Positions 1,430-50,776 of a DNA stretch of 64,000 bases are shown in pieces. The stretch covers positions 58,528,001-58,592,000 of the forward strand of contig JBNRSN020000019.1 of the NCBI GenBank assembly GCA_051313645.2. The letters run 5' to 3'. The notes beneath the pieces were generated by a model. That model was not told the origin of the DNA. It was given only the letters and a program-made list of their open reading frames with translations, and did not search any database. A program made the position numbers and the translations under genes. The DNA comes from Centroscyllium fabricii (lineage: Eukaryota). Within the stretch, counting starts at the first letter, position 1. Every line of letters starts with the position of its first letter.

Positions 1430-4400
1430 TGTGGTAACCATATGTATGTATACATTACCACCGTAATATTGGTGCCAATATTACCAGTGTACATAGCGGT
1501 CGGGTGCATAAGATGTTGCGACACTGTCGTGGGGCCAGGTCAGCCACACCTCTAACTCCTCCCCCAGGTGAGGCCCTTTATAGGTGAGGACTGACCGGAC
1601 CCCAGCCATTCTGTACCTGTTGTTCGTTTGGAGTATAGCTCCTATGTAAGTCAATAAAAGCCTGTAGTTAAGGTCACTACTCGTCTTTGACTTTATTGAG
1701 TTAATTGACGATACGTCAATTTTATTGACTTAAAAATTCGAAATGGAGAGCGGCGCGGTAAAACCAGAGAAGCTGGACATCAGTCCACAGGACCCAGCAG
1801 CCGCCACTACCTTCGAACACTGGTTCGGTCTCCTGGAGGCCTACATGGACGCCGCCAAGGCTACAACCGAAGGGAACAAGCTACAGGTTCTCCGGTCCAG
1901 GATCTCCAGCCGAGTATTCTCCCTCATCCGGGACGCCAAAACGTACCCAGTGACGGTGGAGAAACTGCGAAAATGCTACGAGCGCCCGGTCCACATGGTC
2001 TACGCCAGACATGTGCTCACGACCAGACCACAACTACCGGGTGAGTCGAATGAACAGTTCGAGCAGGCGCTCCAAGCCCTGGTACGGGTCTGTGGCTGCC
2101 AACCACGGACAGCAGAGGAGGAGGCGAATCTCCTCGTCCGAGATGCCTATGTAACAGGCCTAAGGTGCGTAGAGGCCCGCCAGCGGCTGCTAGAGAAAGA
2201 CTCCCTAACCCTAGAGGAGGCGATCTCCATCTCGAACTCGGTGGAAGGTGCACGCAACAAGCTGCAGGCGTACAGCGGCACAAACTCGCAGGTCTACGAC
2301 GAGTGGGCAGCACCACAACGGGTCCAGGCCTGGGCAGCACCACAACGGGCCGAGACCCCCACGATGGCAGCGACAGCCGCAAAGACGCAGGCGGACAAAA
2401 AGTGCTACTTCTGCGGCCAGGGATTACATCCACGGGCGAGATGCCCAGCGAAGACCGCGACCTGCGAGAGGTGCTCCAAGAAGGGACACTATGCAAAGGC
2501 CTGCAGATCAGCCCCGGCGCCCAACTCCAGGTACAACAGCGCAGTCTGCGAAAGCTCCACCAGGCCTCAGGTAAGCTGCAATTGGAGCGCGATCCAGCGA
2601 CGGTCCGGGGGTAGAGAAAAAGCACCCCCATCTCCCACCCTGATGCGGCAAAGGCCGGCTGCACCCACGGCACGCAAAGCTCAGCTACGGCCGGCCAGGC
2701 GCGACCCCCCAACGCCGGCATCATGCCCAGTGCGGCCCGCTGCGTGCGAATCACGGGCACCGCCAACCCAACCACCGCGGCTCGCTGCGTGCGAACCATG
2801 GGCACCGCCAACCCAGCCACCGCGGCCCGCTGCGTGCGAACCACGGGCGCCGCCAACGCGCTCACAGTGGTCAGCCGCGTGCGAACCACGGGCGCCGCCA
2901 TCTTGCCTCCAACGGCCCGCCATGTGCGACCCCTCGGCGCCGCCATCTTGTCTCCAGCGGCCCGCCATGTGCGACCACCCGGCGCCGCCATCTTGTCTCC
3001 AGCGGCCCGCCATGTGCAAACCACGGGCGCCACCATCTTGTGTTCAGCCACAACCAGCAGGGGGCCCCCACACACAAACACACACTTTGGCCTCAGCCAT
3101 CCCAAAAGTCGACCAGGCTAGGCCGCACACCCTATCGAACTCGATTATGCCGATTAAAGTCAACGGCCATACTACCAATTGCCTGTTCGACACCGGAAGC
3201 ACAGAGAGCTTCATCCACCCTGATACAGCGCGGCGCTATGGACTGCAGATCCTGCCCACGAGCTACCAAGTCTCCCTTGCTTCACAGTCCCACACCGCGG
3301 ACATCACCGGCTACTGCTCCGTCACGCTCACAGTCAAGGGTTGCGTGTACCGCAACTTTAAGTTGTACATCCTCAAGCAACTGTGCGCCCCAACCTTACT
3401 GGGACTGGATTTCCAGTGCCACCTTAAGAGCGTGACAATGGAGTTCGGCGGGACCCTGCCCCACCTCACCGTCAGTAGCCGGGACAGTCCCTTCCCAAAG
3501 CGGAGCCCGGCCTGCGGCCTCTCCACCCTGAAAATCGACCCCCCCTCACTGTTCGCCAATCTCGACCCCAACTGCAAACCTATTGCTACCAAGAGTCAGC
3601 GGTACAGTGTGGGGGATCGGACATTTACCAGGTCGGAGGTCGGGCGTATGCTGAAGGAGGGGATAATTGAAGCCAGCACCAGCCCCTGGCAGGCCCAGGT
3701 TGTAGTGGTGAAGACTGGCGAGAAACAGCGGCTAGTTATCGATTACAGCCAGACTATTAACCGCTACACCGGGCTCGATGCCTACCCCCTCCCCCGCATC
3801 TCGGACATGGTCAACCAGATCACCCAATACAAGGTGTTCTCCACAATTGACCTTAAGTTGGCGTATCACCAACTCCCAATCCGGAAAGCCGACCGCCCAT
3901 ACACCGCCTTCGAGGCGAACGGTCGGCTCTACCACTTCCTCCGGGTCCCCTTCGGCGTGACCAACGGAGTGTCAGTGTTCCAACGGGAGATGGACCCCAT
4001 GGTTGACCAGAACGGGTTGCAGGCCACCTTCCCCTACCTGGACAATGTGACTATCTGTGGCCATGACCAGCAGGACCACGATGCCAATCTGGCCAAATTC
4101 CTTGACACGGCGAAACGGCTGGATCAAACGTATAACAAGGACAAATGTGTCTTTAATACAGATCGGCTCGCCATCCTCGGATACGTGGTGGAGAATGGGG
4201 TCCTCGGCCCCGACCCACAGCGTATGCGCCCATTGCAGGAACTGCCCCTTCCTTACAACCCCAAAGCTTTGAGGAGATGCCTAGGAATTTTCTCCTATTA
4301 CGCACAATGAGTCCCACAGTTCGCGGACAAGGCTAGACCACTCCTCAAGGCTGCCGCCTTCCCCCTCTCGGTAGAAGCCCAAACGGCATTCGCCCGGATA

Positions 4401-6325
4401 AAGGAAGACATCATCAAGGCGACCATGCACGCCGTTGATGAATCCATCCCTTTCCAGGTGGAGAGTGACGCTTTGGACTTTGCCCTTGCCGCCACCCTGA
4501 ATCAGGCAGGCAGGCCCGTAGCGTTTTTCTCCCGCACCTTACAGGGACCCGAAATTCGCCACTCTGCAGTGGAAAAGGAGGCCCAATCCATCGTGGAGGC
4601 CATGCGCTATTGGCATCATTACCTGGCCGGTAAGCGTTTTACCCTACTCACCGACCAGCGGTCGGTTGCGTTTATGTTTAATAATAAACAAAAGGGTAAG
4701 ATCAAGAATGATAAGATCCTGCGGTGGCGGATCGAGCTCTCGACTTACGAGTACGACATTCTTTACCGACCAGGCAAACTCAATGAACCCCCGGACGCAC
4801 TGTCCAGGGGAACGTGCGCCAGTGCCCAGCTAGACCGGCTGAAGGACCTCCACGATCGCCTCTGTCACCCGGGTGTCACCAGACTCGCCCACTTCATTAG
4901 ATCTCGTAGCCTCCCCTACTCCATCACAGAGATCAAGGCTATGACCCGAGAGTGCCCTGTTTGCGCCGAGTGCAAACCCCAATTTTTCAGGCCAGACACG
5001 GCGCACCTCATTAAGGCCACCCGCCACTTTGAACGTCTAAGCGTGGACATCAAAGGCCCCCTCCCCTCCACCGACCGCAACTCGTACTTCCTCACGGTCA
5101 TAGACGAGTTCTCCCGCTTCCCCTTCGCCTTCCCCTGCCCAGATATGATGAGCGCAACAGTGATAAGGCACTTCACCACGCTGTTCGCCATTTTCGGTCT
5201 CCCCAGCTACATTCATAGCGACCGGGGGTCATCGTTCATGAGCGATGAACTGCGCCAGTTTCTGCTCCAGAAAGGGGTTGCCTCGAGCAGAACGAACAGT
5301 TACAACCCCCAGGGGAACGGCCAGGTAGAAAGGGAGAATGGGATCATCTGGAAGGCGGTCACCCTGGCCCTGAAGTCCAGAGGCCTTCCAGTGTCCCATT
5401 GGCAGGCAGTCCTCCCCGACACGCTGCACTCGATACGCTCTCTGCTGTGTACGGCCACCAACGCCACCCCTCATGATTTATTGTTTTCCTTTCCCAGGAA
5501 GTCGACTTCGGGGACAGCTCTTCCACCGTGGCTCACGACGCCGGGGCCGGTTTTCCTTAGGAAACACGTCCGCGGCCACATGACCGACCCCCTGGTGGAC
5601 AAGGTGCAGCTCCTGCACGCCAACCCACAGTACGCCTACGTGCAGTTCCCGGACGGGCGTGAGGACACCGTCTCCATCAGGGACCTAGCGCCCACCGGGA
5701 GCACCACAACAGAGACACTGGTCGGGCAGCAGCCCGCCCAGCCACGATATTTCGACCACCCCCTGCACCTACAGTGGCCACCAAGGTATCCAGAGCCCCC
5801 GCCGTGGCCAGCCCAAGACCACCATTCGGATGGCTCGGACCAACCACCACCACCAGCATCTGAAGTTTCGGCACCAGCGCCGCTGTCACCACCACCGGAC
5901 CCAAGCGGGACGGATCACACAGAACTTCTGCCAGAGCCCCGGTGGTCCTCCAGACAGACGCGGCCGCCGGACAAGTTAATAATGAACTGCTCTGTCCATT
6001 CACCCCGCCGGACTTAAATTTTCAAGAAGGGGTGAATGTGGTAACCATATGTATGTATAAATTACCACCGTAATATTGGTGCCAATATTACCAGTGTACA
6101 TAGCGGTCGGGTGCATAAGATGTTGCGACACTGTCGTGGGGCCAGGTCAGCCACACCTCTAACTCCTCCCCCAGGTGAGGCCCTTTATAGGTGAAGACTG
6201 ACCGAACCCCAGCCATTCTGTACCTGTTGTTCGTTCGGAGTATAGCTCCTATGTAAGTCAATAAAAGCCTGTAGTTAAGGTCACTACTCGTCTTTGACTT
6301 TATTGAGTTAATTGACGATACGTCA
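1430..6325 (+). mobile_element. Gypsy LTR retrotransposon A, full length, 289-bp LTRs (1430-1718, 6037-6325)
   Basis: TG...CA LTRs with ~4 differences seen; TSD CACAT (1425-1429, 6326-6330); PPT AAGAAGGGGTGAA before the 3' LTR; no TGG-type PBS. Confidence 0.95.
1743..6017 (+). pseudogene. Gag-PR-RT-RNaseH-IN polyprotein of element A, broken by one in-frame TGA at 4308-4310
   Basis: Two CCHC knuckles, LFDTGS protease, YLDN RT motif, RNase H (VESDA...EKEA), HHCC and DDE integrase; ORFs 1743..4310 and 4425..6017 share a frame. Confidence 0.92.
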
Positions 6326-12546: not shown

Positions 12547-12707
12547 ATGTGGCAGAACCTGGAGCAGATGGAGTTGGGTGAGTATATTAGTTAAGAGAAG
12601 GCACAAACCTTAGTGGCAAAACTTAATGACTAAGTAAGTGGTTGCTGTAACTTTATATTGTATAAAATAGGACTGGCACAGACTATATAATGGTTGTAAT
12701 ACTCTCA

Positions 12708-13660
12708 GGGCACGAAATTCGTGAGCGCACGGATTGGGCGCTAAATTTGGAGATGTGCTCAAATTTAACGCCGGCGCTAAATTAGCGCCGAGGCGGCCGA
12801 TATTGGCGCTAGCGGTGGCCTTGCAGATTTTGGCGTGAATTCACGCCTTGCACGGCTTCCAGGCGGCCAATATATTGCCGCTAATGGCTGTTCCCGGGCG
12901 CAGCGCTCCCTCACTAACTGCTTGCTTCCCCATGGCCTCTGCAGCCAATTAGCCCTTAAAGGGGAAGCAGAGCAGCCTCTTTCCCTCCCGTTCTCTAATC
13001 ATCTGCCAACCATGGGCCGTCAGCAGTCGCAGCTATCCCTTCCCCGATCTCCGATCAGCAGTCGCGGCCATCCCTTCCCCCCTCCCCGATCAGCAGTCGC
13101 GGCCATCCCTTCCCCCCCCCCGCTCTCCGATTAGCAGCCGATCTCCTCCCCCCACCCCCGCTCTCCGAATAACAGCCGATCTCCTCCTCCCCTCCCCGCT
13201 CTCCGATTAGCAGCCGATCTCCTCCCCCCCCCGATCTCCGATTAGCAGCCGATCTCCTCCTCCCCTCCCCGCTCTCCGATCAACTGGCCCATCGGGACGC
13301 CTCCCCCGCTCTCTGAGCAACTGGCCGATCTCAGGCCGAAGAGGGAGGGTGGCCCTTTTAGCAGCGCTGCAGCGGCCACTCAAACCCGCTGCAGCGCTTT
13401 CAAAAGCTGCCGCTGATCGTGTGGGGGCGGTGGAAAGGCGCTAAGCCCAATATCAAGCGCAGCTCGCCGGGCGGGCGTTGCACACACATTGTCACGACAA
13501 TCGGTGATCGTCAGGCGGCGCAGCGCTAATGTTTAGCGCCGGCGCTAACCACTAGACCAATTTAGCGCCCGCCGCTAATTTGGGCACTACGTCGGCGTTG
13601 GCCCATTAGCGCCGATTTTCTGCGCTAATTGGCCAGCGCTAAGGCGCCAATTTCGCGGCC
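12708..13660. mobile_element. Harbinger-type MITE with internal GC-rich minisatellite (copy 1)
   Basis: TIR GGGCACGAAATT / AATTTCGCGGCC; 3-bp TSD TCA; repeated TAGCGCC subterminal motifs; homologous to 36823-37688. Confidence 0.8.
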
Positions 13661-15358
13661 TCAGGGTTCTGGAGGATAATTTTCAAAGTATTGTAAGGTC
13701 GCAATATTCCCTGTTAAATCGGATCCACAAAGACCAGAAACGAAGGATGGAGTATACACATTTTATTTTATTTGGACAATGGCAGACAAGACAGGCTGCG
13801 GCCTGATCAGAGAAAAGGGGCCTCCAAGATGGCCGCCGGACCACATGGCACAGTACAAACCGAAACCAAAAACCCAACTCGAAAAGCCCGCGAAGAAACC
13901 AGACATAAAGGCGCTGTTAAACCTGGAAATAAATAGCCTGCCTTTTAGAAACCGATTAGCCCGACAAAGAAATGCACCCAGTTTAAATAATCACCCAAAA
14001 CAACTGCAGAAACGAAGCAGCTGGTCCGTTCAGCCAGCTACAGAAATTGTATACCCTTCCAGCAGAAAGCGATTAGCACCCTTAAAAACAAAGGAGAGCT
14101 CTAATGGAGAAGTTAGAGCCACCATCAAACTATTACCGGCAGGCTTGGCTGGACAAAAGGGGTGCAATAACCGCTTTCCACACACAATACAGGCTCTAAT
14201 GGGAAAGACATTAGGCAGTTCGACTTTGGGGTATAACTGGCAGCACATTTCTAGAATTCTCTCTCTTGTAACAGACTCTCTGGAAAATCTCTTCTCATCT
14301 GTGGGCTCTCTGGAGAGGGCTCTCTGGTAGAATCTCTCTTGGAAAAATAGCTGAAGGAAAGAGCTCTTAGAGAAGGCTCTTGGAATCGACTCGTGGAGGC
14401 GACCTCTTGAAGCGGTGAGGTCTAGCAGTGACTTTGGGTGGGCTGTCTTTCTCGAAGACTCCAGTTCAGTTTTCTGGGTGCAGGGCAAGCAGGGTGCAGG
14501 CTCTGGCAGGACAGCAGAGTTGGGTCATTAGCGAAGCAAATATTCAAAGTGAGTGAGTTAGAAAAGGCTGGTTGCAGTTGCATTCGAAGAGTGGGAGAAC
14601 AATTAGGCTAGCAGCCCGTTACAGTTCGGCTTGAGAGGGCAGGATCGGCATACCCCAGGGTCCGGTTCAGCCAGGGAGACGGTGCGGTTGGTGTGAGAAG
14701 GTAGAGCAGCCTCGAGGAATCCGTCCGGGACCAGCCCGAGCAGGAGCGACCGCCGCCCAAAGGGAGAAAACAACGAGTGGACTCCCGAATCTTCCACAGC
14801 CACGTGACGACCGACGCTGCAGCCGAAGAAACGAGGGACTTCGTAGCAGAACCCGAGTATTACCGAGTGGTGAGCATGTGCATTGATCCTACACACCTGG
14901 ACATAGCTAGGCAATAGAGGGAAGGGTGGTTCGTTTGGGGTGTAATTTTAGAGTCATTGCCCCGATTTACGATGTGTCGTGCGTTCCCCATCCTATGAGT
15001 TGTTTGTGTATGTGCATATATATATATATCTATTTGGGAACAATTGTTGGTGTTCCATACTGTGTTGACCCGAGAAAACACCATCTAACTGCTGTAAATA
15101 TATCTCTTGATGTAATAAAATCTTCCAACTTTGCAAACTTTTATTCGAGTCAATAGTCTGAGTCCAATCGGCATCCATCTCGTCTCTCTCTCTCTCTCTT
15201 CCTGCACCTAAGTCCAGCGTCTAGAACCGTAAAGAGTGAGCGATTCGAACCGCTCGCGGGGGAGGAGGTTATTGCGCGAGGCCTAGCGGACTGCTAGCGC
15301 AAGGCAATAACGGACCCCAAGTCGTACAGTAAAATATACGGCGCACGCTCCTTACAGA

Positions 15359-17281
15359 ATGGCAACCGCGGCAGGACGCTGGCAGCAGGAGAGAGATCTA
15401 TTGGACTCAGCTTTGAATAAAAGAAGCGTAATGGAGGAAAGGATTGCTGACTATGTATTTAGTAAAGTAAATTTAACAAAGCAGTGGATTGGGGACCTGT
15501 TGGCAGACAAACGCCCACTGGATGCAGCTATCCGTTGGACGGGTAGCAAGGGGCATAAAAAGGCCGTAGAGAAAGCCGTATGGCTAATGTGTTATAAAAG
15601 GCAGGTCCAGCTTTCGGACCAGGTGATTGCGGCGCAGACCGCGCAGATAAAAGGGTTGGTCCTAGAAGTGGAGGAAAAGGTCTCAGGGGGGCAGCGGTTA
15701 ATCACCGCGCTAGAGGCTCTAAATAATGAGCGCCAGGTGAAGACCAACCGCCATGAAGCTAGGGTTGAGCTCCTAGAGAGACAAGTCGTAGAGGCCATGT
15801 CAAGTGAAGGGAAGCTCAGGGAAAGGTGCGTCCGCCTAAGTGGCCAATTGAAGGCACAGGAGGAGGATTTACTGGGGATGAGGGCAGCTTACAAAATGTC
15901 CCTCGAGGCCAAATATGAGGACGCCGATCATAGCGCCTGTTTAAAGGAGATTCAGGACCTCAGGGAGGCCCTGAACAAGTCAAATGGTCTGGTGTGCCTC
16001 ATCGACCCATCGGTGGGTGAGGTAAAGGTAGCTCAGGAACCCCCGAAGCCAAAGTTAAGGAGGAGGGCGCCGGAGGCACCAGCCCCCGCGCTCCCCGCGC
16101 GATCACCCCACTATACGCAAGCATGGGAGAAAGGGGACAGAGAGGAGGTGGCGGCAAAGGTTCCCAAAGTGGGGAATCCAGACCCGGCACCCATGTGTCC
16201 GGTTCGAGAGACGAGGCGGGGTCCCGACACTGCGGCTGGGGATCCCGGGCCCATCCTGAATGAGGTTATAGTGCCCCATAGCTCGCAACAGATAAGGAGC
16301 ATGATAGGGCATTTCAGGAAGCTGTCCGCAGCAGGCGATCCGTCCCTGCATTTTAGGGAGGTCGAACAGGCCGCAGCAATTAACGGCTGTGACGAAGGGG
16401 AGCAAGCCAGGATGTTGCTTTTCTCGTTGGATAGCTCTATCCTTCAGTGTCTCTCCGACGAGAGCAAAAGGGGGGAGAATTGTTATAACGACCTGCGGGA
16501 CGAGGTCCTAGAAATATTAGGGATGGACGATGAAGGTCCGTTTGTAAGGCTGGGTAGGACCGTGCAGATGGAGGGAGAACCCCCACGGGTTTTCGCCGGG
16601 AGGCTGTGGCCTGTGTATCAGCGCAGCTGCCCAGATGTACCTGCACGGGCTGTTTTGCGCGATGCCGGGAGAGCCCAGTGGCTCCGGTGTATCGTTGCCA
16701 ACAGCCTACCCGCCGTTAGAGAGCAGGCGAAGGTGTGGTTTGACCCCACCGATGCTCTAACCACAGAGGAGACGGTCCTCAACCGACTCACGGTTGGGTA
16801 TAAAAATACAAGGAGTTCGGTGATGCACTGCGAAAAGGGGAAGGTGTATGCGACTAACGCAAACGCCCCAGCGCAGAGAGAGTGGTATCAGGAGGGGGGC
16901 AACCCGGGGCAGTCTACATGTCATAGATGCGGGAAGGCAGGCCACTGGCGCAGAGACTGTAGAGCCCCGTGGAGGGAGGTCAAGGAAAGAGCTCCCGCAG
17001 CCCCAGCCCGAGCACCCACTCCCACAGGAGGTGCCGGCGCCACTCTAAGTCCCGAAACAATTGAGTCCATGCTGGAAGCCATGAAGTTTTATATGACTTC
17101 CCAGGGGAAGGTAGCCCCAACCCGAGCACCCGCTCCCACAGGAGGTGCCGGGGCGACCTTAAGTCCCGAGACGATTGAGTCCACGCTGGGGGCCATGAAG
17201 TTGTATATGGCTTCCCAGGGGAAGGCAGCGGTGGCCACCGGTTCCGCAGGCACCGCAGCCCCTCACGTGGAAACCCAATGA
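15359..17281 (+). CDS. gag: Gag of element B (coiled-coil N-region, capsid-like region, one CCHC knuckle)
   Basis: 640-aa open ORF; heptad-rich N-half; Q-x-E-G-E-x-P capsid-like motif; CHRCGKAGHWRRDC. Confidence 0.85.
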   Translation: MATAAGRWQQERDLLDSALNKRSVMEERIADYVFSKVNLTKQWIGDLLADKRPLDAAIRWTGSKGHKKAVEKAVWLMCYKRQVQLSDQVIAAQTAQIKGLVLEVEEKVSGGQRLITALEALNNERQVKTNRHEARVELLERQVVEAMSSEGKLRERCVRLSGQLKAQEEDLLGMRAAYKMSLEAKYEDADHSACLKEIQDLREALNKSNGLVCLIDPSVGEVKVAQEPPKPKLRRRAPEAPAPALPARSPHYTQAWEKGDREEVAAKVPKVGNPDPAPMCPVRETRRGPDTAAGDPGPILNEVIVPHSSQQIRSMIGHFRKLSAAGDPSLHFREVEQAAAINGCDEGEQARMLLFSLDSSILQCLSDESKRGENCYNDLRDEVLEILGMDDEGPFVRLGRTVQMEGEPPRVFAGRLWPVYQRSCPDVPARAVLRDAGRAQWLRCIVANSLPAVREQAKVWFDPTDALTTEETVLNRLTVGYKNTRSSVMHCEKGKVYATNANAPAQREWYQEGGNPGQSTCHRCGKAGHWRRDCRAPWREVKERAPAAPARAPTPTGGAGATLSPETIESMLEAMKFYMTSQGKVAPTRAPAPTGGAGATLSPETIESTLGAMKLYMASQGKAAVATGSAGTAAPHVETQ

Positions 17282-18952
17282 CTAAGACCCGCGCTGCCCA
17301 TTTACCTGTGTCCGCTCCGTTACGATGCATGGAGGAGACCTCTGGTGGAAATGGAGGTGGAGAGACAGGAGGGGAATTATCTGTTGGATACGGGGGCCTC
17401 ATGCACCGTGATCCACACAGAGAAGCCGTTTAATTCCCCAATGTCCACCGGAGTCCCTTTTGCATTAGCCGGGTTTACGGGCAAGGAACAGGGGGGCGCG
17501 CGCTCAGCGGCAGTAGGGGAAGAAGGGGAGATCTTCATCCACAAGGTGAAGGCTCACTCTTCCACGGAACCACGTGGGGGAGGCAATCAGCGGGCGGATG
17601 CGCTGGCCAAGGAGGGTGCTCGTGAAGGCATTTTCTGGGACCCCTACGGGTCCGGACCTGTGGCAGCGATCCGGGATAAGGAGGGGAACCGCCTCAGGGT
17701 ACCCCTGCCTTTGGATCTCAAAACGGTCCAAAACCAGGATCCCGTTTTAAAAGCTGTCCTCAAAGCTATTAGTGAGGACAAGCAGGTAGAGGGCCCATAC
17801 AATAGGGCGACCCTCTCCGTTAAGGAAGGAATGTTGTTCAGGGAGGAACAGTGGGTTGTGCCGCAGCAGCACAGGAGGGAATTTCTCCAATTGGCCCACG
17901 AGGGTCCAGGAGCAGGGCACCCCGGGCCAGAGGTTACGTGGCAACGGGTGGATATAAACCAGTGTAAGAGGTATAAGTCGGGCACGCAGGGGTCGACCAC
18001 AGGGGCAAGCCCTGTGAGTGGGAACGCCCAGCCAAGTGCAGGACCACAGGTCGCGCAGGCAGGCAAAGTAGCCTGCGTGAAAGGAGAGGCCCCGATGGAG
18101 GAGAGGAGGGTCTCTCGTGCTGTGTGGGATTCGGATGGGGAGGAGCCGGACCAACACGACCAAGTGTTGGATCCGATGGACCAACACGACCAAGTGTTGG
18201 ATCCGAGTGGCCAACCCGACCAAGGGTTGGACCTGATTGACCTATGCGACCCAGTGCTAGAGTCAATCACAGGGGAGGAGGAGGGGTCGGAGGACGGGGG
18301 TTCCGTTCTCGACTCGAATGCCGACGAGGTAGGGATAGCGGGCGGAGACTCACCACCTGAGGAGATAGGTGAGGTGAGGTCAGAAGCCGCAAGAGATCCC
18401 AGTCCCGGGGAAGCGAAGCTGAAGGAGGGAGGGTCGATGCTGGCGGCTGTGAGGGAGTCACAGGCTGCAGCACGATCCGGCCCGGCCTTCAGTTCGTCGA
18501 CGAGGCGAGAGGAGGGAGCGTCGATGCTGACAGATGTGACGGGGTCACAGGCTGTAGCACGACCTGGCCCGGTCCTCAGGTCGTCGACCCAGGGGGCTCT
18601 CGGTCCCAGGGAGGCGAAGCTGGAGGGAGAGGGGTTGGTGCTGGCAGATGTGACGGGGTCACAGGCTGCAGCACAACCTGGCTCGGTCCTCAGTTCGTCG
18701 GCCCAGGGAGCAGTACCTAAAGGCACCCTCCGTCGATCGGATAGGATACCCCCGCCCAGGAAAGCTTGGCCAGAACCGTCATATGCCCTCAGGTATAGGA
18801 AAAGCCCCCGCAAAAGGATAATTATCCACCCCCGACAAGCAGCACCAGGCTGCGGAGAATCAAAGGCAGCGACAGGCTGCGGGGAACCAAAGGGAAGGGT
18901 CAGCAAGGCACCGCCACGGGGAGCGGCCCACTACGACCCTGACAGGGGATAG
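17282..18952 (+). CDS. Internally deleted Pol of element B (protease N-half, RNase H C-end, integrase HH, integrase C-end, acidic tail), in frame with gag across TGA
   Basis: YLLDTGAS; IHKVKAHS...GNQRADALAK; LAHEGPGAGHPG; DINQCKRY; no RT or DDE motifs. Confidence 0.8.
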   Translation, partial: LRPALPIYLCPLRYDAWRRPLVEMEVERQEGNYLLDTGASCTVIHTEKPFNSPMSTGVPFALAGFTGKEQGGARSAAVGEEGEIFIHKVKAHSSTEPRGGGNQRADALAKEGAREGIFWDPYGSGPVAAIRDKEGNRLRVPLPLDLKTVQNQDPVLKAVLKAISEDKQVEGPYNRATLSVKEGMLFREEQWVVPQQHRREFLQLAHEGPGAGHPGPEVTWQRVDINQCKRYKSGTQGSTTGASPVSGNAQPSAGPQVAQAGKVACVKGEAPMEERRVSRAVWDSDGEEPDQHDQVLDPMDQHDQVLDPSGQPDQGLDLIDLCDPVLESITGEEEGSEDGGSVLDSNADEVGIAGGDSPPEEIGEVRSEAARDPSPGEAKLKEGGSMLAAVRESQAAARSGPAFSSSTRREEGASMLTDVTGSQAVARPGPVLRSSTQGALGPREAKLEGEGLVLADVTGSQAAAQPGSVLSSSAQGAVPKGTLRRSDRIPPPRKAWPEPSYALRYRKSPRKRIIIHPRQAAPGCGESKAATGCGEPKGRVSKAPPRGAAHYDPDRG

Positions 18953-21900
18953 GTAGGCCGCCCGGGAGAGGCGGCACTGTATATAATGAAAATAATAAGT
19001 TTGGTAGTGTTAAGGGAGTAGCCCGAATTAAGTGTTGAATTTTGTTAAAGGTGAAGGGGAATGTTTAGGTAATATGGGATCTGTCCAGGAGGCGTGCACA
19101 TCTCACCACAGCCAGGCGCTCTTGGGAGGCCGGCAACCCCTTTGTTTGATTACAGAACCCAGAGAGGCGGGGATTCTGATGACGTGTGCGGGCATCAAAG
19201 ATGGACTGGCCTGCCGGGGCCACACCGGGGAGTACGGACGGCTGGGAACGGACCCAATGGAGCATCCCAGCACGTCGGAATCTGCTTGTGGAGAGACTTG
19301 GTTTTATGTGCCCCGGATCAAGACCATCGCACCCAGGACCGGCGCTATCATCGGTAAAAGGACTTACCTTGTTGAGGGATAGGAAGATCCCAGCGAGCCG
19401 ATGGTGGTGGCTGCAGAAGACCGCCAGAACACTGTACAAACTTTGGGGACAAATGGGGGGATTGGTGAAGGGGAATGTGTGTGTTTATATGTTCCGGATG
19501 GTTGTGTGATGTTTTTCAAGTTAATAAATGATGTAAACAGGTGGAGACGAAGGCATCGGCCTGGCAGACGTGGAAGGAACCAGGAGGTGTAAGCCATGGT
19601 TGTGTAAATATACGATTGCCCAGGGTAAAGGCAATGCGAGGTTGATCAAAGGGAATGGGAACCGCATGTGTCATGGGGCAAGAGTTAATTTAGGTAACCA
19701 GGAGAGTTGAGGTGTGGAGAATCGGGAATCTTGCTCAACCTTTCTTAATTGATTCGCTAAGCAGGGTTATGCTAATCAACAGGAGGGACTGTAAGGTCGC
19801 AATATTCCCTGTTAAATCGGATCCACAAAGACCAGAAACGAAGGATGGAGTATACACATTTTATTTTATTTGGACAATGGCAGACAAGACAGGCTGCGGC
19901 CTGATCAGAGAAAAGGGGCCTCCAAGATGGCCGCCGGACCACATGGCACAGTACAAACCGAAACCAAAAACCCAACTCGAAAAGCCCGCGAAGAAACCAG
20001 ACATAAAGGCGCTGTTAAACCTGGAAATAAATAGCCTGCCTTTTAGAAACCGATTAGCCCGACAAAGAAATGCACCCAGTTTAAATAATCACCCAAAACA
20101 ACTGCAGAAACGAAGCAGCTGGTCCGTTCAGCCAGCTACAGAAATTGTATACCCTTCCAGCAGAAAGCGATTAGCACCCTTAAAAACAAAGGAGAGCTCT
20201 AATGGAGAAGTTAGAGCCACCATCAAACTATTACCGGCAGGCTTGGCTGGACAAAAGGGGTGCAATAACCGCTTTCCACACACAATACAGGCTCTAATGG
20301 GAAAGACATTAGGCAGTTCGACTTTGGGGTATAACTGGCAGCACATTTCTAGAATTCTCTCTCTTGTAACAGACTCTCTGGAAAATCTCTTCTCATCTGT
20401 GGGCTCTCTGGAGAGGGCTCTCTGGTAGAATCTCTCTTGGAAAAATAGCTGAAGGAAAGAGCTCTTAGAGAAGGCTCTTGGAATCGACTCGTGGAGGCGA
20501 CCTCTTGAAGCGGTGAGGTCTAGCAGTGACTTTGGGTGGGCTGTCTTTCTCGAAGACTCCAGTTCAGTTTTCTGGGTGCAGGGCAAGCAGGGTGCAGGCT
20601 CTGGCAGGACAGCAGAGTTGGGTCATTAGCAAAGCAAATATTCAAAGTGAGTGAGTTAGAAAAGGCTGGTTGCAGTTGCATTCGAAGAGTGGGAGAACAA
20701 TTAGGCTAGCAGCCCGTTACAGTTCGGCTTGAGAGGGCAGGATCGGCATACCCCAGGGTCCGGTTCAGCCAGGGAGACGGTGCGGTTGGTGTGAGAAGGT
20801 AGAGCAGCCTCGAGGAATCCGTCCGGGACCAGCCCGAGCAGGAGCGACCGCCGCCCAAAGGGAGAAAACAACGAGTGGACTCCCGAATCTTCCACAGCCA
20901 CGTGACGACCGACGCTGCAGCCGAAGAAACGAGGGACTTCGTAGCAGAACCCGAGTATTACCGAGTGGTGAGCATGTGCATTGATCCTACACACCTGGAC
21001 ATAGCTAGGCAATAGAGGGAAGGGTGGTTCGTTTGGGGTGTAATTTTAGAGTCATTGCCCCGATTTACGATGTGTCGTGCGTTCCCCATCCTATGAGTTG
21101 TTTGTGTATGTGCATATATATATATATCTATTTGGGAACAATTGTTGGTGTTCCATACTGTGTTGACCCGAGAAAACACCATCTAACTGCTGTAAATATA
21201 TCTCTTGATGTAATAAAATCTTCCAACTTTGCAAACTTTTATTCGAGTCAATAGTCTGAGTCCAATCGGCATCCATCTCGTCTCTCTCTCTCTCTCTTCC
21301 TGCACCTAAGTCCAGCGTCTAGAACCGTAAAGAGTGAGCGATTCGAACCGCTCGCGGGGGAGGAGGTTATTGCGCGAGGCCTAGCGGACTGCTAGCGCAA
21401 GGCAATAACGGACCCCAAGTCGTACAGTAAAATATACGGCGCACGCTCCTTACAGTATGTGCTGTCGACAGGGAACCCTGCAAGCTGGTAGCGCATATCG
21501 GAGATCTTTCATACACTGACATCAATTTTATTTGTGCCTGTTTATATTTCTGATGGAACTTAACTTGCACAGAGGGCAGAGCGGTCTGTCAGCTGCTTGC
21601 TGTGGAATTGAGGACTGATTTTGTTTTACTTTCCTTCCATATATCACGGTTTCTGCTTCTCTTTGTCAGCAACTATTTATGTCCTATGAGGTAACTTTAA
21701 CTTTTGGCAGTAGTGTAAAACCGGCAATATCAGATTGGCCGCCCGTTAAACATCTCTCCCCATTTTTCTTTCTGTTGACTTCGAAAATTGGGAGCAGTGT
21801 ATAACGAGCGGCCAATCCGACCCATTTGACATCCCCATTGTATCATCGACTCTTTTTCAGTGTTTCTCTGTACCACCATTCCTTGATGTGTTTCCCAATG

Positions 21901-22293: not shown

Positions 22294-25200
22294 TTACAAG
22301 TCCAGTCTCTGTGGAGGCCGGCGGTCTCTCGCTGGGTATCGTCTTCCGATGTTTAGTGAGGAAGTAGTCTCAGTAGACTGGCCGTCTAACTCGGCCTCTG
22401 AAGAGTCTTCATCAGGCGTTGATTCGGCTGGAAGATTGTCCTCTGGTTGTGGCACCTCATTACTGGCCACTGTGTCCCTCACGATCTGATCCATATGCCT
22501 CCTGATTTGTCCCTCCGGTGTGTCCACCGTGTATGTCTGCTGCCCTTGCCATTGGCTGATAACTTCAGCCTGCCACTTGTCTCGTCGGTAGTCTCTCACG
22601 AGTACCTCTTGGCCTACGTCAAAGTCCCTGGGTTTCCTATCTGCAGTCTTTCGAAACATCTTTCCCTCGACATCTCGTAGTATGTTCGTCTGCAATAGGT
22701 CCAACCAGCTTCCGTAATCTCCTGTTGAAGAACAACACTGATGGGGCCTGGTTAGTGGTCGCATGTGTGTCATTTTTATAGGCAAAAGAGGAAGTTGTCA
22801 ATTTAATGTTGCAGATTTAACTTTCCTCCCTCCATGGCTTTGATAGCCTTTTTAAAGGTTTCTACAAACCGTTCTGCCAACCCATTGGTGGCTGGGTGGT
22901 ATGGTGCCGACTTGTAATGTCGGATGCCGTTTCGTTTGAGGAACATGCTAAACTCCTCCGACACAAACTGGGGACCATTGTTGGAACAGATCTGTTCCGG
23001 TATACCATTTCCGGCAAAAATGGTTCGGCGTACTGAGATTGTCTTCTCAGTTGTAGTGGAGGACATTCGTATCACTTCTGGCCACTTGGAATGGGCGTCA
23101 ACGACAATGAGAAACATTGCGTCCATAAAGGGTCCAGCAAAGTCAATATGAATGCGTTGCCACGGTGATAATGGCCACTTCCAAGGGTGCAAGGGAGCCT
23201 GGGGCGGTGAGTTTTGGACCATTTTGCACCCTGTGCATTCGCTGGCCAACTGCTCTATCTCTTTATCAATCTTGGGCCACCATACGTATGCCCGAGCCAG
23301 TGATTTCATTTTTACCCCACCCAGATGCCCCTCATGGAGGTCTGCCAAAATCTGTTTCCGTAGCTTCATGGGAGTCACTACCCGACCCCCGCACATCAGC
23401 GTGCCCCAACGGACCGACAACTGGTCCTCCCTATTGGCGTACTCAGGCCAGTGTTAAAGGTCCTCTCTTAACCATCCATTGACTACAATGGTGAAAATTT
23501 TTGCCAAGCAGGGATCATTTCTGGTCTCCCTCTCAATTTGCTGGCTGGTGGTTGGTAGTTGCTCAATCACTGCTGTGTGGTACAGTTCCAGGGGATCCTG
23601 TTGACCCCCCTCTCCTGTTTCTGGGAAGGGTAAGCGAGACAGTCCGTCTGCATTACCATGCCTTTTTGTCCCTTTGTGTTCTATGGTGTATTTATGTGCA
23701 CCCAAGAACAGTGCCCATCTTTGCAGCCTTTGTGCTGTCATCTGGGGTACCCCTTTTTCTGGGTGGAAGATGGAGACCAGTGGTTGGTGGTCTGTGAGGA
23801 GTGTGAATTCTTGACCGTGTAGGTAATGGTGAAACTTTTTCACCCCCCATACCAAGCTGAGTGCTTCACGGTCTATTTGGGCGTAGTTTTTCTCTGCCGC
23901 AGTGAGGGATTTGGAGGCAAAAGCTATTGGTCATTCCGACCCGTCTGAGCATCTGTGGGAGAGGACAGCACCGATACCATAAGGGGAAGCATCACATGCC
24001 AACTTAAGGGGCAGGTTGGGATCAAAATGCATTAGCACCTCCTTCGAGGTGATCATCCGTTTGCTTTTTTCAAATGCATTTTTGCAGGTTTTGTCCCACT
24101 TCCAGGGTGTTCCCGCCTGTAGGTGTGTGTTTAAGGGGTACAAGACTGTAGATAGGTTAGGTAGGAACTTGTGGTAGTAGTTGATGAGCCCTAAAAATTA
24201 CCTTAGTTGATTGACATTTTGTGGTCTTGGGGCATTCACTACCATTGCTATCTTGTCGGGTGATTTGTGTAACCCTTCACTATCGATTTCGTAGCCGCAG
24301 TACGAAATGTGGTTCTTAAAGAATTCGCATTTAAGTTTATTGGCCCTTAGCCCATACTCTTTAAGTCTTTCTAAGACTGTTGCCAAGTTGAATAAGTGTT
24401 CCCCATCTGTTTTACCCATCACCAGGATGTCATCCAGGTAACACTGTGTCCCTGGGATGCCCTGTAGTACCTGGTCCATGGATCTCTGCCGTATGGCTGG
24501 TGCCGATGCAATACCAAAAGTCATCCGGTTATACTGGTACAGTCCTTTATGTGTGTTGATAGTCAGGGGTTTCCTGGACTCCTGCTTCACCTCCATCTGC
24601 AGGTATGCTTGTGAGAGGTCTATCTTGCTGAACCGTTTCCCACCTGCTAAGGAAGCGAAGATATCCTCAATCCTGGGCAATGGGTACTGTACAATTTTCA
24701 AAACCGGGTTAATGGTCATCTTAAAGTCCCCACAAATGCGCACTTTTGTCTTTTCCCCTTCTTTTGTTTGTGTCTTTTTAATGACAGGAATGATGGGCGT
24801 GGCCCATTTACTCCATTCCACTTTGGACAGAACTCCTTCTGCCTCCAGATTCTCAAGTTCTGCTTCCACTGCTGGCCTAACGGCATAGGGTACTGGACAC
24901 ACCTTAGCGAACGTCGGGGTTGCCCCTTGTGTGAGAATTACCTTGGCGTGAAAGTTTTTCAACTTTCCCAGGCCGGGTTGGAAAACCTCTGGGTTTTTTT
25001 TCAAGATTATCTCGACTCTTTTTATGACCGATGTGTCCTCGTTCGTTTTGTCTGCAGTGTCGACATGGTGTATTGTGCCCCAGTCGAGATTAATCCTCCG
25101 GATCCACTCCCTCCCCAGGATTTGCGCTCCACCATCCTTTACGACATATAGGTAAAGACCTTTTGTCTGGTTACCTTGGTATCTGACTGGGACGGGCAAC

Positions 25201-26278
25201 CTCCCCAAAGTCCTAAATTTCTGTCCCGTGTAGGTTTTAAGTATCACAGGGGACTGTTCTAGGGGTATTCCTCTAAATGTCCTTTTGTAGAATTGTTCAT
25301 TTATGACTGATAGAGCTGATCCTGTATCTAGCTCCATTGATATCTCTACCCCTGCCACCTTGAGGGGGATCCATATAACCTCCCGGTCAGTGTGTACGCC
25401 CATGTTGTGGATCTTTAGGCTTCTCAGCCCCCAGTGTTCTCTGCCCTGGTCATCTGGTTTGCTTTCCAAACCGTCTTCTGTGATTTTTGTACCTTTCTGG
25501 GGTTGCCCTGTTTTTGTGGTTCTCTTTGTGACCCCTTGGTTTGTTTCCCTGACCTACAAACTGCCGCAATGTGGCCTATCTTACCACACTGCCTACAATC
25601 TTTATCTTTGGCCCAGCACCTGTTTTGAACATGTGTGGACTTGCCACAGCAGTAGCACTTTTTTGTGCGAGTCGTGATTTTGTGGGTTTCTAGACAACCC
25701 CTGCTGTTTCTTATCTGTGCTGCCCCTGCTGCAGCTGCCTCGTGGGCTGCGGCTGTTTCTAAAGCTTGCTCCAATGTGAGCGTCTTTATAGCCAGCAATT
25801 TCTTCTGAGTGGCATCGTCTAATATGCCACAGACAAATCTGTCTCTTAAATAATTTGCTAGTTTGTCCCCAAACTCGCACTGCTTTGACAAACGTCTAAG
25901 TTCTGTCAGATACTCAGACTGTGACTCGCCTTTTTGCTGTTCTCTTTTGAAAAATTTAAAGCGTTCCCCTATGAAAGGGGATCTGGGGTTTAGATTTTCC
26001 TTTAGAATATCCTTAACTTGTTGGAGTGTTTTATTCGCTGGTCTATCCAGGGATACTAGTGTTCGTAGTAACCCGTATGTTTCGGGTCCTAATGCGTTTA
26101 GTAAAACATTTAGTTTGTTTTCATCTGCTACTGCCTGTACATTGCAGTATATATCAAAATATTCTAAATATGCTTCCCAGTCCTCTTTTTCAGACTGGAA
26201 AACCCCAAACCCGTTTGGTACGGTCCTATTCTGTCTGGCTCTGGTTGCATCTGGTTGTGCGTTTTCCTGTTCCCCCAT
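22294..26278 (-). pseudogene. gag-pol of element C with frameshifts
   Basis: gag 25424..26278 (two knuckles); PR LDTGS and RT YLDD in 24198..25469; RH CDASPYG; IN IHIDFAGP...NGLAER. Confidence 0.9.
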
Positions 26279-26299
26279 CTTTACTGTATGTTATTGGGG

Positions 26300-36232: not shown

Positions 36233-36822
36233 TAGTTGCAAATCCACACTTCTCTCGCACTCGTGATTAAAATACCCTGTACAAGGAAAAGCTTGAAGAG
36301 TGATATTTCTCACTTTGTCTCAAATTCACAATATTTCAAACTGTGGAGCTCCCATAGTCTTTTCTCCTTCCTAAAATCTGCAGGCTTTTAAATCTTTTAG
36401 CACGGCACCACCTAGCCACCATTATAGCACAACTGAAAGTTAGTAAAGATTTTAGTATGCACAGACCAGAAAGACAGCAGGTGGAACTTTCTAACGCTGC
36501 GTGCCTCTGGCAGAGCCTTACGCACAGCGGATGACTTATTGAAAAATTGCGCGTGCGTGTCCCATGATTTTCTGTCCTCTGACATTAGTAGATGAAAAAT
36601 CACAGGCAACGCACTGCTGATTTTCCGATAAGAAAAGGGCCGAAGAAAAGTTACATGCAACATAGCTACAAAATTCATGATCCAGGTGGGATAAATCCTG
36701 AAGGAATTCTTTGCTTGACATTTTTCAGAGTTCCTAAATATTGTAGAAGTTGCCAGGGATTGGAGGATGGCAAATGTTGAATAAGACACAAACCTCATAT
36801 TTCTTTGACTCATAGAAACATA

Positions 36823-37688
36823 GGGCGCGAAATTCATGAGCGCACGGATTGGGCGCTAAATTTAGCGATGTGCTGAAATTTAGCGCCGAGGCGGCCGATA
36901 TTGGCGCTAGCGGTGGCCTTGCAGATTTTGGCGCGAATTCACGCCTTGCACGGCTTCCAGGCAGCCAATATATTGCCACTAATGGCCGTTCCCGGGCGCA
37001 GCACTCCCTCACTAACTGCTTGCTTCCCCCTGGCCTCTGCAGCCGATTAGGCCTTAAAGGGGAAGCAGAACAGCCTATTTCCCTCCCCGTTCTCTCATCA
37101 TCTGCCAACCGCGGGCCATCAGCAGTCGCGGCCATCCCTTCCCCCCTCCCCGCTCTCCGATTAGCAGCCGATGTCCTCCCCCACTCCCCGATCTCCAATT
37201 AGCAGCCGATCTCCTCCCCCGAACTCTCCAATTAGCAGCCGATCTCCTCCCCCCCCAACCATCTCCGATTAGCAGCCGATCTCCTCCCCCCCTCTCCGCT
37301 CTCCGCTCAACTGGCCCATCGGGACGCCTCCCCTGCTCTCTGAGCAACTGGCCGATCTCGGGCCGAAGAGGGAGGGTGGCCCTTTTAGCAGCGCTGCAGC
37401 GGCCACTCAAACCCGCTGCAGCACTTGCAAAAGCTGGCGCTAATATGGCGGGGGGCGGTGGAAAGGCGCTAAGCCCAATATCGGGTGCAGCCCGCCGGGC
37501 AGGCATTGCGCACGCATTGTCATGACGATCGATGATCGCCAGGCAGCGCAGCGCTAACGTTTAGCGCCGGCGCTAACTGCTAGGCCAATTTAGCACCCGG
37601 CGCTAATTTGGGTGCTACGTCGGCGCTGGCCCATTAGCGCCGATTTTCAGCGCTAATGGGCCAGCGCTAAGGCGCCAATTTTGTGGCC
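36823..37688. mobile_element. Harbinger-type MITE (copy 2 of the 12708-13660 family), inserted in a CR1 tail microsatellite
   Basis: End-to-end homology with copy 1; TSD ATA; flanked by CATAGAAA repeats. Confidence 0.82.
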
Positions 37689-40401: not shown

Positions 40402-43400
40402 TGTAGCGCCGGCAGGGCCTAGAAACCACGCGTGAGCCAGAGAGCTAGAGAAAACACTTCTTTAATGCAGTTGAGTTAAACAGGAAAGAGAGTGAACCAC
40501 TCACAACAAGCTTATTTAAACTGCCCGCCGTTGGTGACGTCATCACGCAGGTAGACGTGGTGACGTCGTCGCGTCACCCGGATGAGCGGGGCTCTGCTCT
40601 GCGGAGTTCCCGTGGCGGATTCGGTGTCCCAGTGGGCGTGCCGCCACACAGCTCCGCCCAGAATCCATCCGGGAGTAATATAAAAGTGTCTATGTGAGCC
40701 GCTGGGGTGGCCGGATGATGCGGCCGGCCCGTGTTGCGTGTTGCTTCTGGTTCTGCGGTGGAGCGTGGGCAGGTGTTGTTGCGGGAGGGCGTCCGCGTTG
40801 CGGTGGTTGTGCGGGGACTGTCGTCTCACCCGCTATAACGTGTGCCGGCTTGAGCCGGTCTATTGTAACAGTTTCTGTCCTGTTGCCCATTTGCAGCTGG
40901 AAAGCTTTAGCTCCCGCCCGAAGCACTCTATAGGGGCCATCGTATGGTGGCTGTAGTGGAGATCGGTGTCCGTCGCACCGGACGAACACGAATTTTGCCT
41001 TTTTGATGCCGTCCGGTACTCGTGCTGCCGGCTCTCCGTGCCGGGCCACTGGCAGTGGCTGGAAAGCTTGTGCCGGGTTGGCAAAGTCTTTTAAATACTG
41101 GTCGGCTGACCAGGGAGCGTTTGGTTCGGCTAAAAATTTGCCCGGCACTGTTAGGGCTTGGCCGTAAACGAGTTCTGCTGCCGAGGCGTTTAGGTCCTCT
41201 TTGACTGCCGAGCGCAGCCCGAGGAGGACCCATGGGAGACGGTCAGTCCAAGACGCGTCCTTGAGGGTGGCTCGCAGTGATGCCTTCATCGATCGGTGGA
41301 ACCGTTCGCAGAGCCCGTTCGCTTGTGGGTGGTATGCGGTGGTTCGATGTAAGGTTACCCCGAGGTCGCGGGCGATGGCCGCCCATAGTGCTGACGTGAA
41401 CTGGGGTCCTCTGTCGGAGGTGATGTCGGTGGGCACGCCGAAGCGGGCGACCCAGGTGGCGATGAACGCCCTGGCCAGGTCTGTGGTGCCGGTGGCAGCG
41501 AGGGGGACTGCTTCTGGCCAGCGAGTGTTGCGGTCGACCATGGTCATTACATGCGTGTGGCCCCGGGATGGCGGTAGTGGCCCGACGAGATCAATGTGGA
41601 CGTGGTCAAAACGTCTGGCCGGCACTTTAAATGCTTCCAGCGGTGCCCTGATGTGCTTATGCACTTTGGAGCGCTGGCAGGCAATGCAGGAGTTGGCCCA
41701 GGCGCGGACGTCTTTGCGCAGGCCGCGCCATACGAACCGGGCCGAGATGAGTTTAATCGACGCGCGGGTGCCGGGGTGGGACAGGTCATGGAGGGTCTTA
41801 AAAATGTGTCGCCTCCAAGCATGGGGGACGACGGGCCTGGGCTGCGGCAGGGACACGTCGCAGCAGACGACGGTGGCAGCGGGGCCATGCACGATGTTGG
41901 CCAAGTGGAGGCCGGGGAGAGTTGCTGCTAAGTTGAGCAGGTCCGGGTCGGCCAGCTGGTCAGCGGCCAGCTGGGCGTAATCGACCGCCATTTGGGCGGC
42001 GTTAATGGTGGGGCGTGAGAGGCAGTCAGCGACCACGTTGTCGCGGCCGGAGATATGCTGAATGTCGGTCGTGAACTCCGACACGGCCGCGAGCTGGAGC
42101 TGCTGCCTGGCCGACCAGGGTTCGGCGACCTTAGCTATCGCGAAGGTGAGTGGCTTATGGTCGACGAAGGCTGTGAAATGGTGGCCCTCCAGGAGGAAGC
42201 GAAAATGTCGCACTGCCAGATGGAGAGCGAGTAGCTCCCTATCGAAAGCACTGTACTTGACCTCTGGGGGCCGGAGCTGCCGGCTGAAAAAGGCTAGGGG
42301 CTGCCACGAGTTGCCGGTCCACTGCTCAAATACGGCCCCGACCGCGTGGTCTGAGGCGTCGGTGGTGAGGGCTACTCTGGCGTTGGGCCTAGGGTGGGTT
42401 AGGAGGGTGGCGTTAGCCAGGGCGGTTTTAGTTGCGGTGAAGGCGGTGGCGGCATCGGCCGTCCACTCGACCGCAGCCTTGTTGGACTGCCCGCGTGTGG
42501 CCTGGTATAAGGGGGCCATGAGAGCGGCTGCTCCCGGGATAAAGCGGTTATAAAAATTGACCATCCCCAGAAATTCCTGCAACCCCTTAATGGAGCGCGG
42601 GCGGGGGAATTCCTGGACCGCCTGCACCTTGGCGGGCAGGGGTATGGCCCCGGTTTGGGAAATGCGGTGGCCGAGGAAGTCAATGGTTTCGAGGCCGAAT
42701 TTACACTTGGTCGGGCTTAATATAAGGCCGTGTTCGACCAGGCGCTGGAACAGGGTCCTGAGGTGCAGGAGGTGTTCCTGGGGGGAGGTGCTGGCCACGA
42801 GGATGTCGTCTAAGTAGACGAAAATGAACTTCAAGTCCCGTAGGACCAAGTCCATGAGGCGCTGGAAGGCCTGGGCCGCGTGTTTAAGGCCGAAGGGCAT
42901 CCTGAGGAACTCGAAGAGCCCGAAGGGAGTGATCACGGCCGTTTTGGGAATGTCCGCCGGGTGCACGGGAACCTGGTGGTAGCCACGCACCAGGTCGATC
43001 TTGGAGAAGATCGTGCAGCCCGCTAATCTGGTGGAAAAATCCTGGATGTGGGGTACGGGGTACCTATCCGGGGTAGTGGCATTATTAAGGTGGCGGTAGT
43101 CGCCGCAGGGGCGCCAACCCCCGCCCGACGTAGGGGCTATGTGGAGAGGAGAGGCCCAGGGGCTGTTGGAGCGGCGGATTATACCGAGTTGCTCCATGGT
43201 GCGGAACTCGGTGCGCGCGATCTCCTGTTTGGCCGGGTCGAGCCTGCGGCCGTGGGCATGGACGGGAGGGCCTGTGGTGGTAATAAAGTGTTCTACCCCG
43301 TGTTTGGCCCGGCGGGCGGTGAACGTGGGGTTGGTTAGGGCGGGGAACTCAGCTAGGAGTGTGCCATAGGCATCGGAGTTCCGAGAGCGGCATTGGGCTG

Positions 43401-50554: not shown

Positions 50555-50776
50555 GTGCAGAGCCATTATAACAAGGTTCCCACCTGTTTCGGGTGGGAGC
50601 CCTGGTCTCCCTTTTTGAGGCCTGTTTGAAAATCAAGTCAGGCGGGTCTCAGGTGTTTTTTCTCTAAATTTTCTTCTCCCTAAATCGCTTGATTTTTCAG
50701 TGTGAACAGTGCAGTAGGCAGATGAAAATTGCCCCTGAGAGTCCTCTTTGAGCTCAGCATTGCTTTAACATTAAGA

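Follow-up and report, generated by a model that had tools for sequence, protein, structure and literature searches.

A stretch of 64,000 nucleotides of the Centroscyllium fabricii genome (assembly GCA_051313645.2, contig JBNRSN020000019.1, positions 58,528,001 to 58,592,000; hereafter the window) carries at positions 13692-21454 an endogenous retrovirus (ERV)-like element with two nearly identical long terminal repeats (LTRs), an open gag and a pol frame that has been shortened by two large internal deletions. Its features are as follows.

13688-13691, plus strand: target site duplication, left copy, 4 bp
13692-15356, plus strand: 5' LTR, 1665 bp, TGT...ACA, with a TATA-like run at 15017-15028 and AATAAA at 15114
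15359-17281, plus strand: gag, 640 codons, with a likely N-terminal coiled coil, a capsid-like middle, one CCHC knuckle and a 114-bp C-terminal duplication
15360-15377, plus strand: likely primer-binding site, beginning TGG 3 bases past the 5' LTR and overlapping the gag start codon
17279-17284, plus strand: gag stop in UGA-CUA context, a type II readthrough hexamer
17282-17505, plus strand: N-terminal half of the protease, including the DTG motif and the flap, up to deletion 1
17506-17952, plus strand: final ~40 residues of RNase H, linker and N-terminal HH of the integrase, between deletions 1 and 2
17953-18952, plus strand: very end of the C-terminal domain of the integrase, followed by a low-complexity tail of 324 codons that is present in the undeleted form too
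18953-19789, plus strand: 3' internal region, 837 bases, longest stop-free stretch 116 codons, with indels among copies
~19778-19788, plus strand: purine tract
19790-21454, plus strand: 3' LTR, 1665 bp
21455-21458, plus strand: target site duplication, right copy

The pol frame (17282-18952) runs for 556 codons without a stop, and its architecture can be read by comparison with two relatives, P0002, the closest full Pol (1145 amino acids, from a Logan contig, with reverse transcriptase (RT), tether, RNase H, H2C2 and rve domains), and P0001 (72% identity). Residues 24-75 match the start of the P0002 protease and residues 76-224 match P0002 residues 733-883 at 74% identity; deletion 1 (17505/17506) leads from residue 75, in the protease flap, to P0002 residue 733, and ~680 residues are gone, i.e., half of the protease, the RT, the tether and most of RNase H. 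Deletion 2 (17952) takes the frame from residue 224, at the integrase HH, to a point near P0001 residue 530; in P0001 numbering this second jump runs from 219 to ~530, with a loss of ~310 residues comprising the integrase core. Both joints, where exact homology amounts to 0 and 1 base, are supported at base level, as public contigs depart from the window sequence exactly there. The two frame-preserving deletions, with the boundaries proposed in a first-pass annotation of the window, are thus confirmed by the two proteins and the public contigs, and so is the enzyme-less state of Pol: no complete protease, RT, RNase H or integrase is encoded by the window copy. Splicing as the source of the deletions was rejected, as on neither strand do the removed parts, inspected by eye, have GT..AG ends. 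The protein collection yielded no counterpart of this deleted architecture; of 2002 candidates one was returned, P0001, which has a whole integrase.

The tail downstream of the second joint had been described as acidic and open over ~330 residues. It is open, but acidic only over its first 143 codons (32 D+E versus 7 K+R), while the last 81 are basic (19 K+R versus 6 D+E) and the part between is repeat-rich; it has no Pfam or Atlas match. The tail is native to the undeleted form and not an invention of the deleted copy, since an undeleted contig in one public run (record 31 of run X9, below) covers 684 bases of it.

Undeleted relatives can be identified in public sequencing data. Twenty of the 23 runs listed, from 10 studies, contain the stretch or part of it, 14 of them at no less than half of the sampled words; no run contains all sampled words, and the best share is 0.85. 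None of the runs listed is an RNA run, a result that does not bear on expression. Near-identical sequence occurs in runs of several coded organisms (A-G, shares 0.34-0.85) and in fish gut metagenomes, a distribution which suggests either that related species have the family in common or that the samples contain DNA of the host. Four of the 23 runs (X1, X6, X9 and X15), which represent four coded organisms and not the genome of the window itself, were compared in detail by contig alignment, and in three of them (X9, X15 and X1) contigs run on into the missing domains. In X9 (49 contig records aligned, 8 listed), record 29 continues for 843 letters beyond 17505, record 30 spans 17506-17952 with 443 and 39 letters past its ends, and record 31 joins at 17952 after 439 foreign letters; by eye, these loose letters translate to the missing protease, RNase H and integrase, and over the 2560 bases of four coding pieces from X9 there are 19 differences from the window (99.3% identity). 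The undeleted continuation is represented in X15 by record 15, with loose ends at 17949 and 17952, and in X1 by 11 contigs at 17505; none was seen among the loose ends listed for X6. The element family is highly repeated, since 29,363 contig records in X1 and 11,288 in X6, figures that do not give copy number, aligned on 6.4 kb. From P0001 and P0002 the undeleted form would measure ~10.7 kb. A near-identical undeleted form therefore exists that could act as a helper, with putatively intact enzymes; none was found within the window, where P0002 matches elsewhere only distant Gypsy Pols (24-30% identity).

The termini are those of a retrovirus-type LTR element, with paired LTRs ending in TG..CA (here TGT / ACA), a 4-bp target duplication outside them, a likely primer site and a purine tract. 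The near-identity of the LTRs noted earlier is confirmed (1 difference over 1665 bp), and the age, previously given as very young, can now be put at ~1.4 million years (95% range 0.04-7.6) by the shark rate assumed in PMC4422223, or at 0.14 million years by a mammalian rate. Since the gag start codon overlaps the likely primer site (15357-15377), the whole leader sits inside the LTR, and the primer site sets the first Gag residues. Since the relatives P0005, P0011 and P0014, at ~34% Gag identity, share the N-terminus MATAAG, a gag start on the primer site is a family trait. The primer-site stretch may resemble a vertebrate arginine-tRNA primer site. Neither an env-like frame nor a Pfam match was found between the pol stop and the 3' LTR (837 bases), no env was found elsewhere in the window, and no env of the undeleted form was seen among the contig loose ends listed. 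The first third of each LTR (13680-14330 and 19694-20428) contains a stop-free frame of more than 200 codons without Pfam match, which is probably not coding, because copies carry single-base indels there. The left flank (12701-13691) is itself a repeat, 82% identical to a window copy at 36822-37688 and with tandem units of 35-38 bp; the insertion thus sits within another repeat, in a transposon-dense window.

Gag is intact, as had been reported, over its 640 codons, with the CCHC knuckle at residues 520-535. Its capsid signal is modest: Atlas features give 0.92-0.93 to Retrotrans_gag clusters, and the murine leukaemia virus (MLV) capsid profile matches only at E 0.3-0.9. The exact Gag is absent from the protein collection searched, and pattern matches in viral contigs (4) and metagenome contigs (44) included none that was confirmed. 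The relatives with a named source come from Heptranchias, Scyliorhinus and Heterodontus, which points to a shark host. In contrast with the fully open Gag-Pol of the first description, an in-frame TGA (17279-17281) divides gag from pol, which continues in the same frame. The UGA-CUA context is a type II readthrough hexamer (PMC13517186), and no stable stimulatory structure was found 3' of the stop (z -0.12).

The dual RNase H (tether plus RNase H) and the order protease-RT-RNase H-integrase are seen in the 74%-identical P0002, while the window retains the RNase H end only. In PDB searches the P0002 RT is about equally close to Ty3, MLV/XMRV (xenotropic MLV-related virus) and foamy virus, and the P0002 integrase is closest to foamy virus; its nearest relatives in the collection are frog and coelacanth 'NYNRIN-like' Pols (41-45%). 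An RT tree of 20 rows, without named viruses, places P0002 as sister to these frog and coelacanth Pols (97/95), within a 100/100 clade of 9 rows that stands apart from 11 Gypsy-type rows. Counted by hand against the supplement 2 alignment of PMC9040795, the P0002 RT agrees with snakehead retrovirus (SnRV) at ~101/227 positions (~44%) and with Loki-Lch at ~74/227 (~33%), and by eye the block after motif B of Loki and Odin is missing from P0002, an observation from that alignment and not from a tree. In the RNase H alignment KVKAH occurs twice (SnRV and Xen-1) and KVKGH ten times, those shown being in Odin. Of the earlier assignment of the RNase H to a retroviral or lokiretroviral type, the retroviral, dual-RNase-H part holds, whereas the lokiretroviral part gives way to these figures. 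The lokiretrovirus label was rejected: the Loki/Odin RT block is absent, the P0002 RT is nearer to SnRV by hand count and no Mononegavirales-type fusion env was seen. The element is likely affiliated with the SnRV-like ERVs, on the strength of the hand count and not of a tree; these correspond to clade Huo of Xu et al. 2018 (PMC6001957) and are known from the elephant shark as CmiERV lineage I (PMC4422223). ERV3/ERV4 are described with a 5-bp duplication and no Gag zinc finger (PMC4299795, Table 1), in contrast with the 4 bp and the CCHC knuckle found here, and membership in that group was discarded.

With the SnRV-like ERVs, a clade already present in cartilaginous fish, the element shares an RT most like that of SnRV (by the hand count on the closest full Pol), a dual RNase H, the KVKAH motif, and gag and pol in one frame separated by a readthrough-type stop. 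A zinc finger in Gag and a GPY/F motif are noted for some SnRV/Ovex1-related ERVs (PMC4299795), comparable to the CCHC of the window Gag and the GPY of P0001. It differs from SnRV in its UGA-CUA context (UAG-GGC in SnRV), and from the SnRV-like ERVs in that no env was seen, and in its 1.67-kb LTRs, gag start on the primer site and long low-complexity tail; it is also young, whereas the dated CmiERV is 75 million years old (PMC4422223). Lokiretroviruses and Odin (PMC7947760, PMC9040795) likewise have a dual RNase H and 'NYNRIN-like' relatives, and Odin is also without env, but P0002 lacks their shared RT block, and no env of the fusion-glycoprotein kind was seen in the window element. No publication was found that describes this family or an SnRV-like satellite with deletions in pol, although Repbase, Dfam, subscription journals and bioRxiv supplements may contain such a description.

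We infer that the element, an internally deleted provirus, was somewhat more probably than otherwise mobilised in trans by full-length members of its own highly repeated family. A normal integration footprint surrounds a body without enzymes, and the letters at 14369 and 15307, rare or absent in all four runs, are present in both LTRs and hence either predate the insertion, the donor belonging to a distinct lineage, or are specific to the host species. RNA of the element would be transcribed from the 5' LTR; Gag synthesis would begin at the ATG that overlaps the primer site, and a minority of ribosomes would read through UGA-CUA into the enzyme-less pol remnant. The RNA would then be co-packaged with Gag-Pol of the helper, reverse transcribed and integrated. 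The two deletions would likely have been made in earlier rounds of copying by template switching, as the loss of two such large parts, separately and in an insertion of this youth, is more easily understood as sequential. The satellite or defective provirus borrowing its enzymes that had been proposed is thereby upheld as far as a potential helper is concerned, a near-identical undeleted form being present in other samples, whereas the multiplication of the deleted form is unproven.

The closest parallels would be mouse intracisternal A-particle (IAP) 1Δ1 and zebrafish BHIKHARI, as defective copies mobilised in trans. IAP 1Δ1 is likewise an ERV without env, internally deleted but with its reading frame still open, and depends on full-length relatives (PMC7411935, PMC6466679); unlike the window element, which has a whole gag, two deletions inside pol and unproven amplification, it has one 1.9-kb deletion that fuses gag to pol. 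It relies on Gag supplied in trans, its amplification as a sub-family is proven, and a cis role of its fusion has been shown. BHIKHARI Bik-1/Bik-2 (bioRxiv 10.1101/2024.03.25.586437) resemble the window element in being young, with a long open gag (617 amino acids with an N-terminal coiled coil), no enzymes and complementation in trans as inferred by their authors, but they are lokiretroviral, have kept no pol parts, and their helper was not found in the reference, whereas the window element is probably SnRV-like, retains pol remnants and has a visible undeleted form. The bovine ERVK D-type offers a further precedent for a defective copy mobilised in trans (PMC10924933).

Several observations weigh against mobilisation in trans. 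Copies with identical deletion junctions, for which the first-pass annotation had proposed a search, did not appear: no second copy of either joint is present among the contigs listed in the runs examined, and those of X9 and X15 show the undeleted form only. The three undeleted records suffice to account for the X9 depth bins around the joints (12.9, 11.7, 11.4 and 11.6), and X9 therefore contains no bridging contig; likewise, the X15 records listed continue without a break through the joints into parental sequence. X1 and X6 are uninformative on the joints, with a further 40,902 pieces and 1,612 loose ends beyond those listed, and a 26-base pattern of junction 1 gave 0 matches in JGI metagenome contigs, an equally uninformative result, as that collection yielded no Gag relative either. 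The best run holds 0.85 of the words, and since the runs are other samples, private letters may be species differences; moreover, the near-private internal letters number 7, approximately the upper bound (about 7) for changes after insertion. A multiplying satellite family is, on this evidence, unproven.

It is quite conceivable, if not what we would expect, that the copy is instead a one-off wreck, in which both deletions arose in a single round of reverse transcription or by DNA repair after insertion, there are no descendants, and the open frame reflects chance and youth. The exclusively undeleted form in X9 and X15 fits this account, and chance suffices for the frame, as two cuts are both in frame in 1 case out of 9, and with a transition weight of 6 the pol frame would escape any new stop with a probability of 0.58 for a divergence of 1%, and of 0.98 for the age given by the LTRs. 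At 7 internal letters at least 90% of the X1 depth differs from the window; 3 of these are synonymous, one of them in the primer site, and 4 are not, 3 of the latter in the pol remnant, as under relaxed constraint. These near-private letters, small and selected in number, give no sign of constraint on the window copy. Single deleted copies together with an in-frame pol deletion are also reported for XtERV-S (19 deleted copies; PMC8278194). However, a wreck requires two kilobase-sized deletions in one round or within a short time, and a random window would be likelier to catch a doubly deleted young copy if the type is repeated.

Within mobilisation in trans, a narrower version holds that the deleted form amplifies as a sub-family of its own and that its open frame is maintained, either because readthrough shields the RNA from nonsense-mediated decay or because the fusion acts in cis; this we regard as rather unlikely. 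Both joints are in frame, and at each the two parental ends have, by eye, a four-letter word in common, 1 base off joint 1 and 4 bases off joint 2, where clean joins would break the frame; the simulated chance of this is ~7% for each joint and 0.5% for both. The criterion was chosen after the joints had been seen and the parental ends come from other organisms, and the junction anatomy thus gives a post hoc hint in favour of frame selection. The retained UGA-CUA context points in the same direction. The decay-avoidance idea would be mechanistically sound by analogy with Moloney MLV, whose RNA is stabilised by readthrough (PMC7566565), and the IAP 1Δ1 fusion acts in cis (PMC7411935, PMC6466679). 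On the other hand, no junction copies were found among the contigs listed, and the remnant shows no sign of amino-acid constraint.

Constraint is nonetheless visible in the family as a whole. Among the 40 differences listed of 422, 25 coding rows were classed: gag variants comprise 11 synonymous and 4 non-synonymous (against 30% synonymous expected, p 6e-4) and pol-frame variants 6 and 4 (p 0.05). The replicating family is under purifying selection, as follows from the synonymous excess in gag. For the window copy, selection on the open frame, advanced earlier as decay avoidance or a decoy protein, is not required in view of the chances given above, with the one post hoc hint in its favour; such selection is possible but doubtful, and the frame is mostly explained by inheritance from a recent intact parent and by chance.

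That the host keeps Gag or a Gag fusion as a developmental factor or a dominant-negative decoy, as proposed for BHIKHARI, is very improbable: an open gag with a likely coiled coil and the zebrafish precedent (bioRxiv 10.1101/2024.03.25.586437) would be compatible with it, but with the same 0.98 probability of no stop at LTR age, selection cannot be read from an open gag in so recent an insertion, and the insertion lies inside another repeat in a transposon-dense window. Least credible is an assembly artefact, in which collapse of the repeat family made the joints, for although the family is highly repeated and the joints are not spanned by any of the public contigs listed, gaps are absent, the target duplication is intact, and joint homology of 0 and 1 base is unlike overlap-driven collapse.

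Other elements surround the provirus. A second, unrelated LTR element of 3.2 kb (47377-50555, minus strand), with ~650-bp repeats that show 1 difference, has one open frame of 626 codons encoding a Ty3-type capsid, a protease and an acidic tail, and no RT, RNase H or integrase; young enzyme-less elements are therefore not rare here. Four Gypsy-type elements can also be identified.

1430-6325, plus strand: Gypsy-type element
~22800-26290, minus strand: Gypsy-type element
40693-44601, minus strand: Gypsy-type element
54503-58897, plus strand: Gypsy-type element

Two of the four have a long open Gag-Pol (1303 and 1465 codons). The elements at ~1.4 kb and ~54 kb are relatives of each other, and both contain arrays of 45-bp repeats inside gag.

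As it stands, the element adds another defective ERV copy to a familiar kind, but it marks a family of cartilaginous fish that is probably SnRV-like, highly repeated and recently active, that apparently lacks env, and whose LTRs are very long and whose gag begins on the primer site. The boldest version of its history, to which we give little credence at present, would be a shark satellite retrovirus with its own capsid and four borrowed enzymes, trimmed twice and each time back into frame because readthrough ribosomes must run the whole of pol to keep the RNA stable or packaged. If true, this would be a natural experiment in which selection acts on the translation of pol rather than on the product, within an SnRV-like family devoid of env. 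Should the joints prove common to many loci and in frame, the IAP 1Δ1 result, in which non-autonomous spread is driven by translation in cis, would be extended to a retroviral lineage far removed from it, and the finding would make readthrough-linked RNA protection testable by population genetics.

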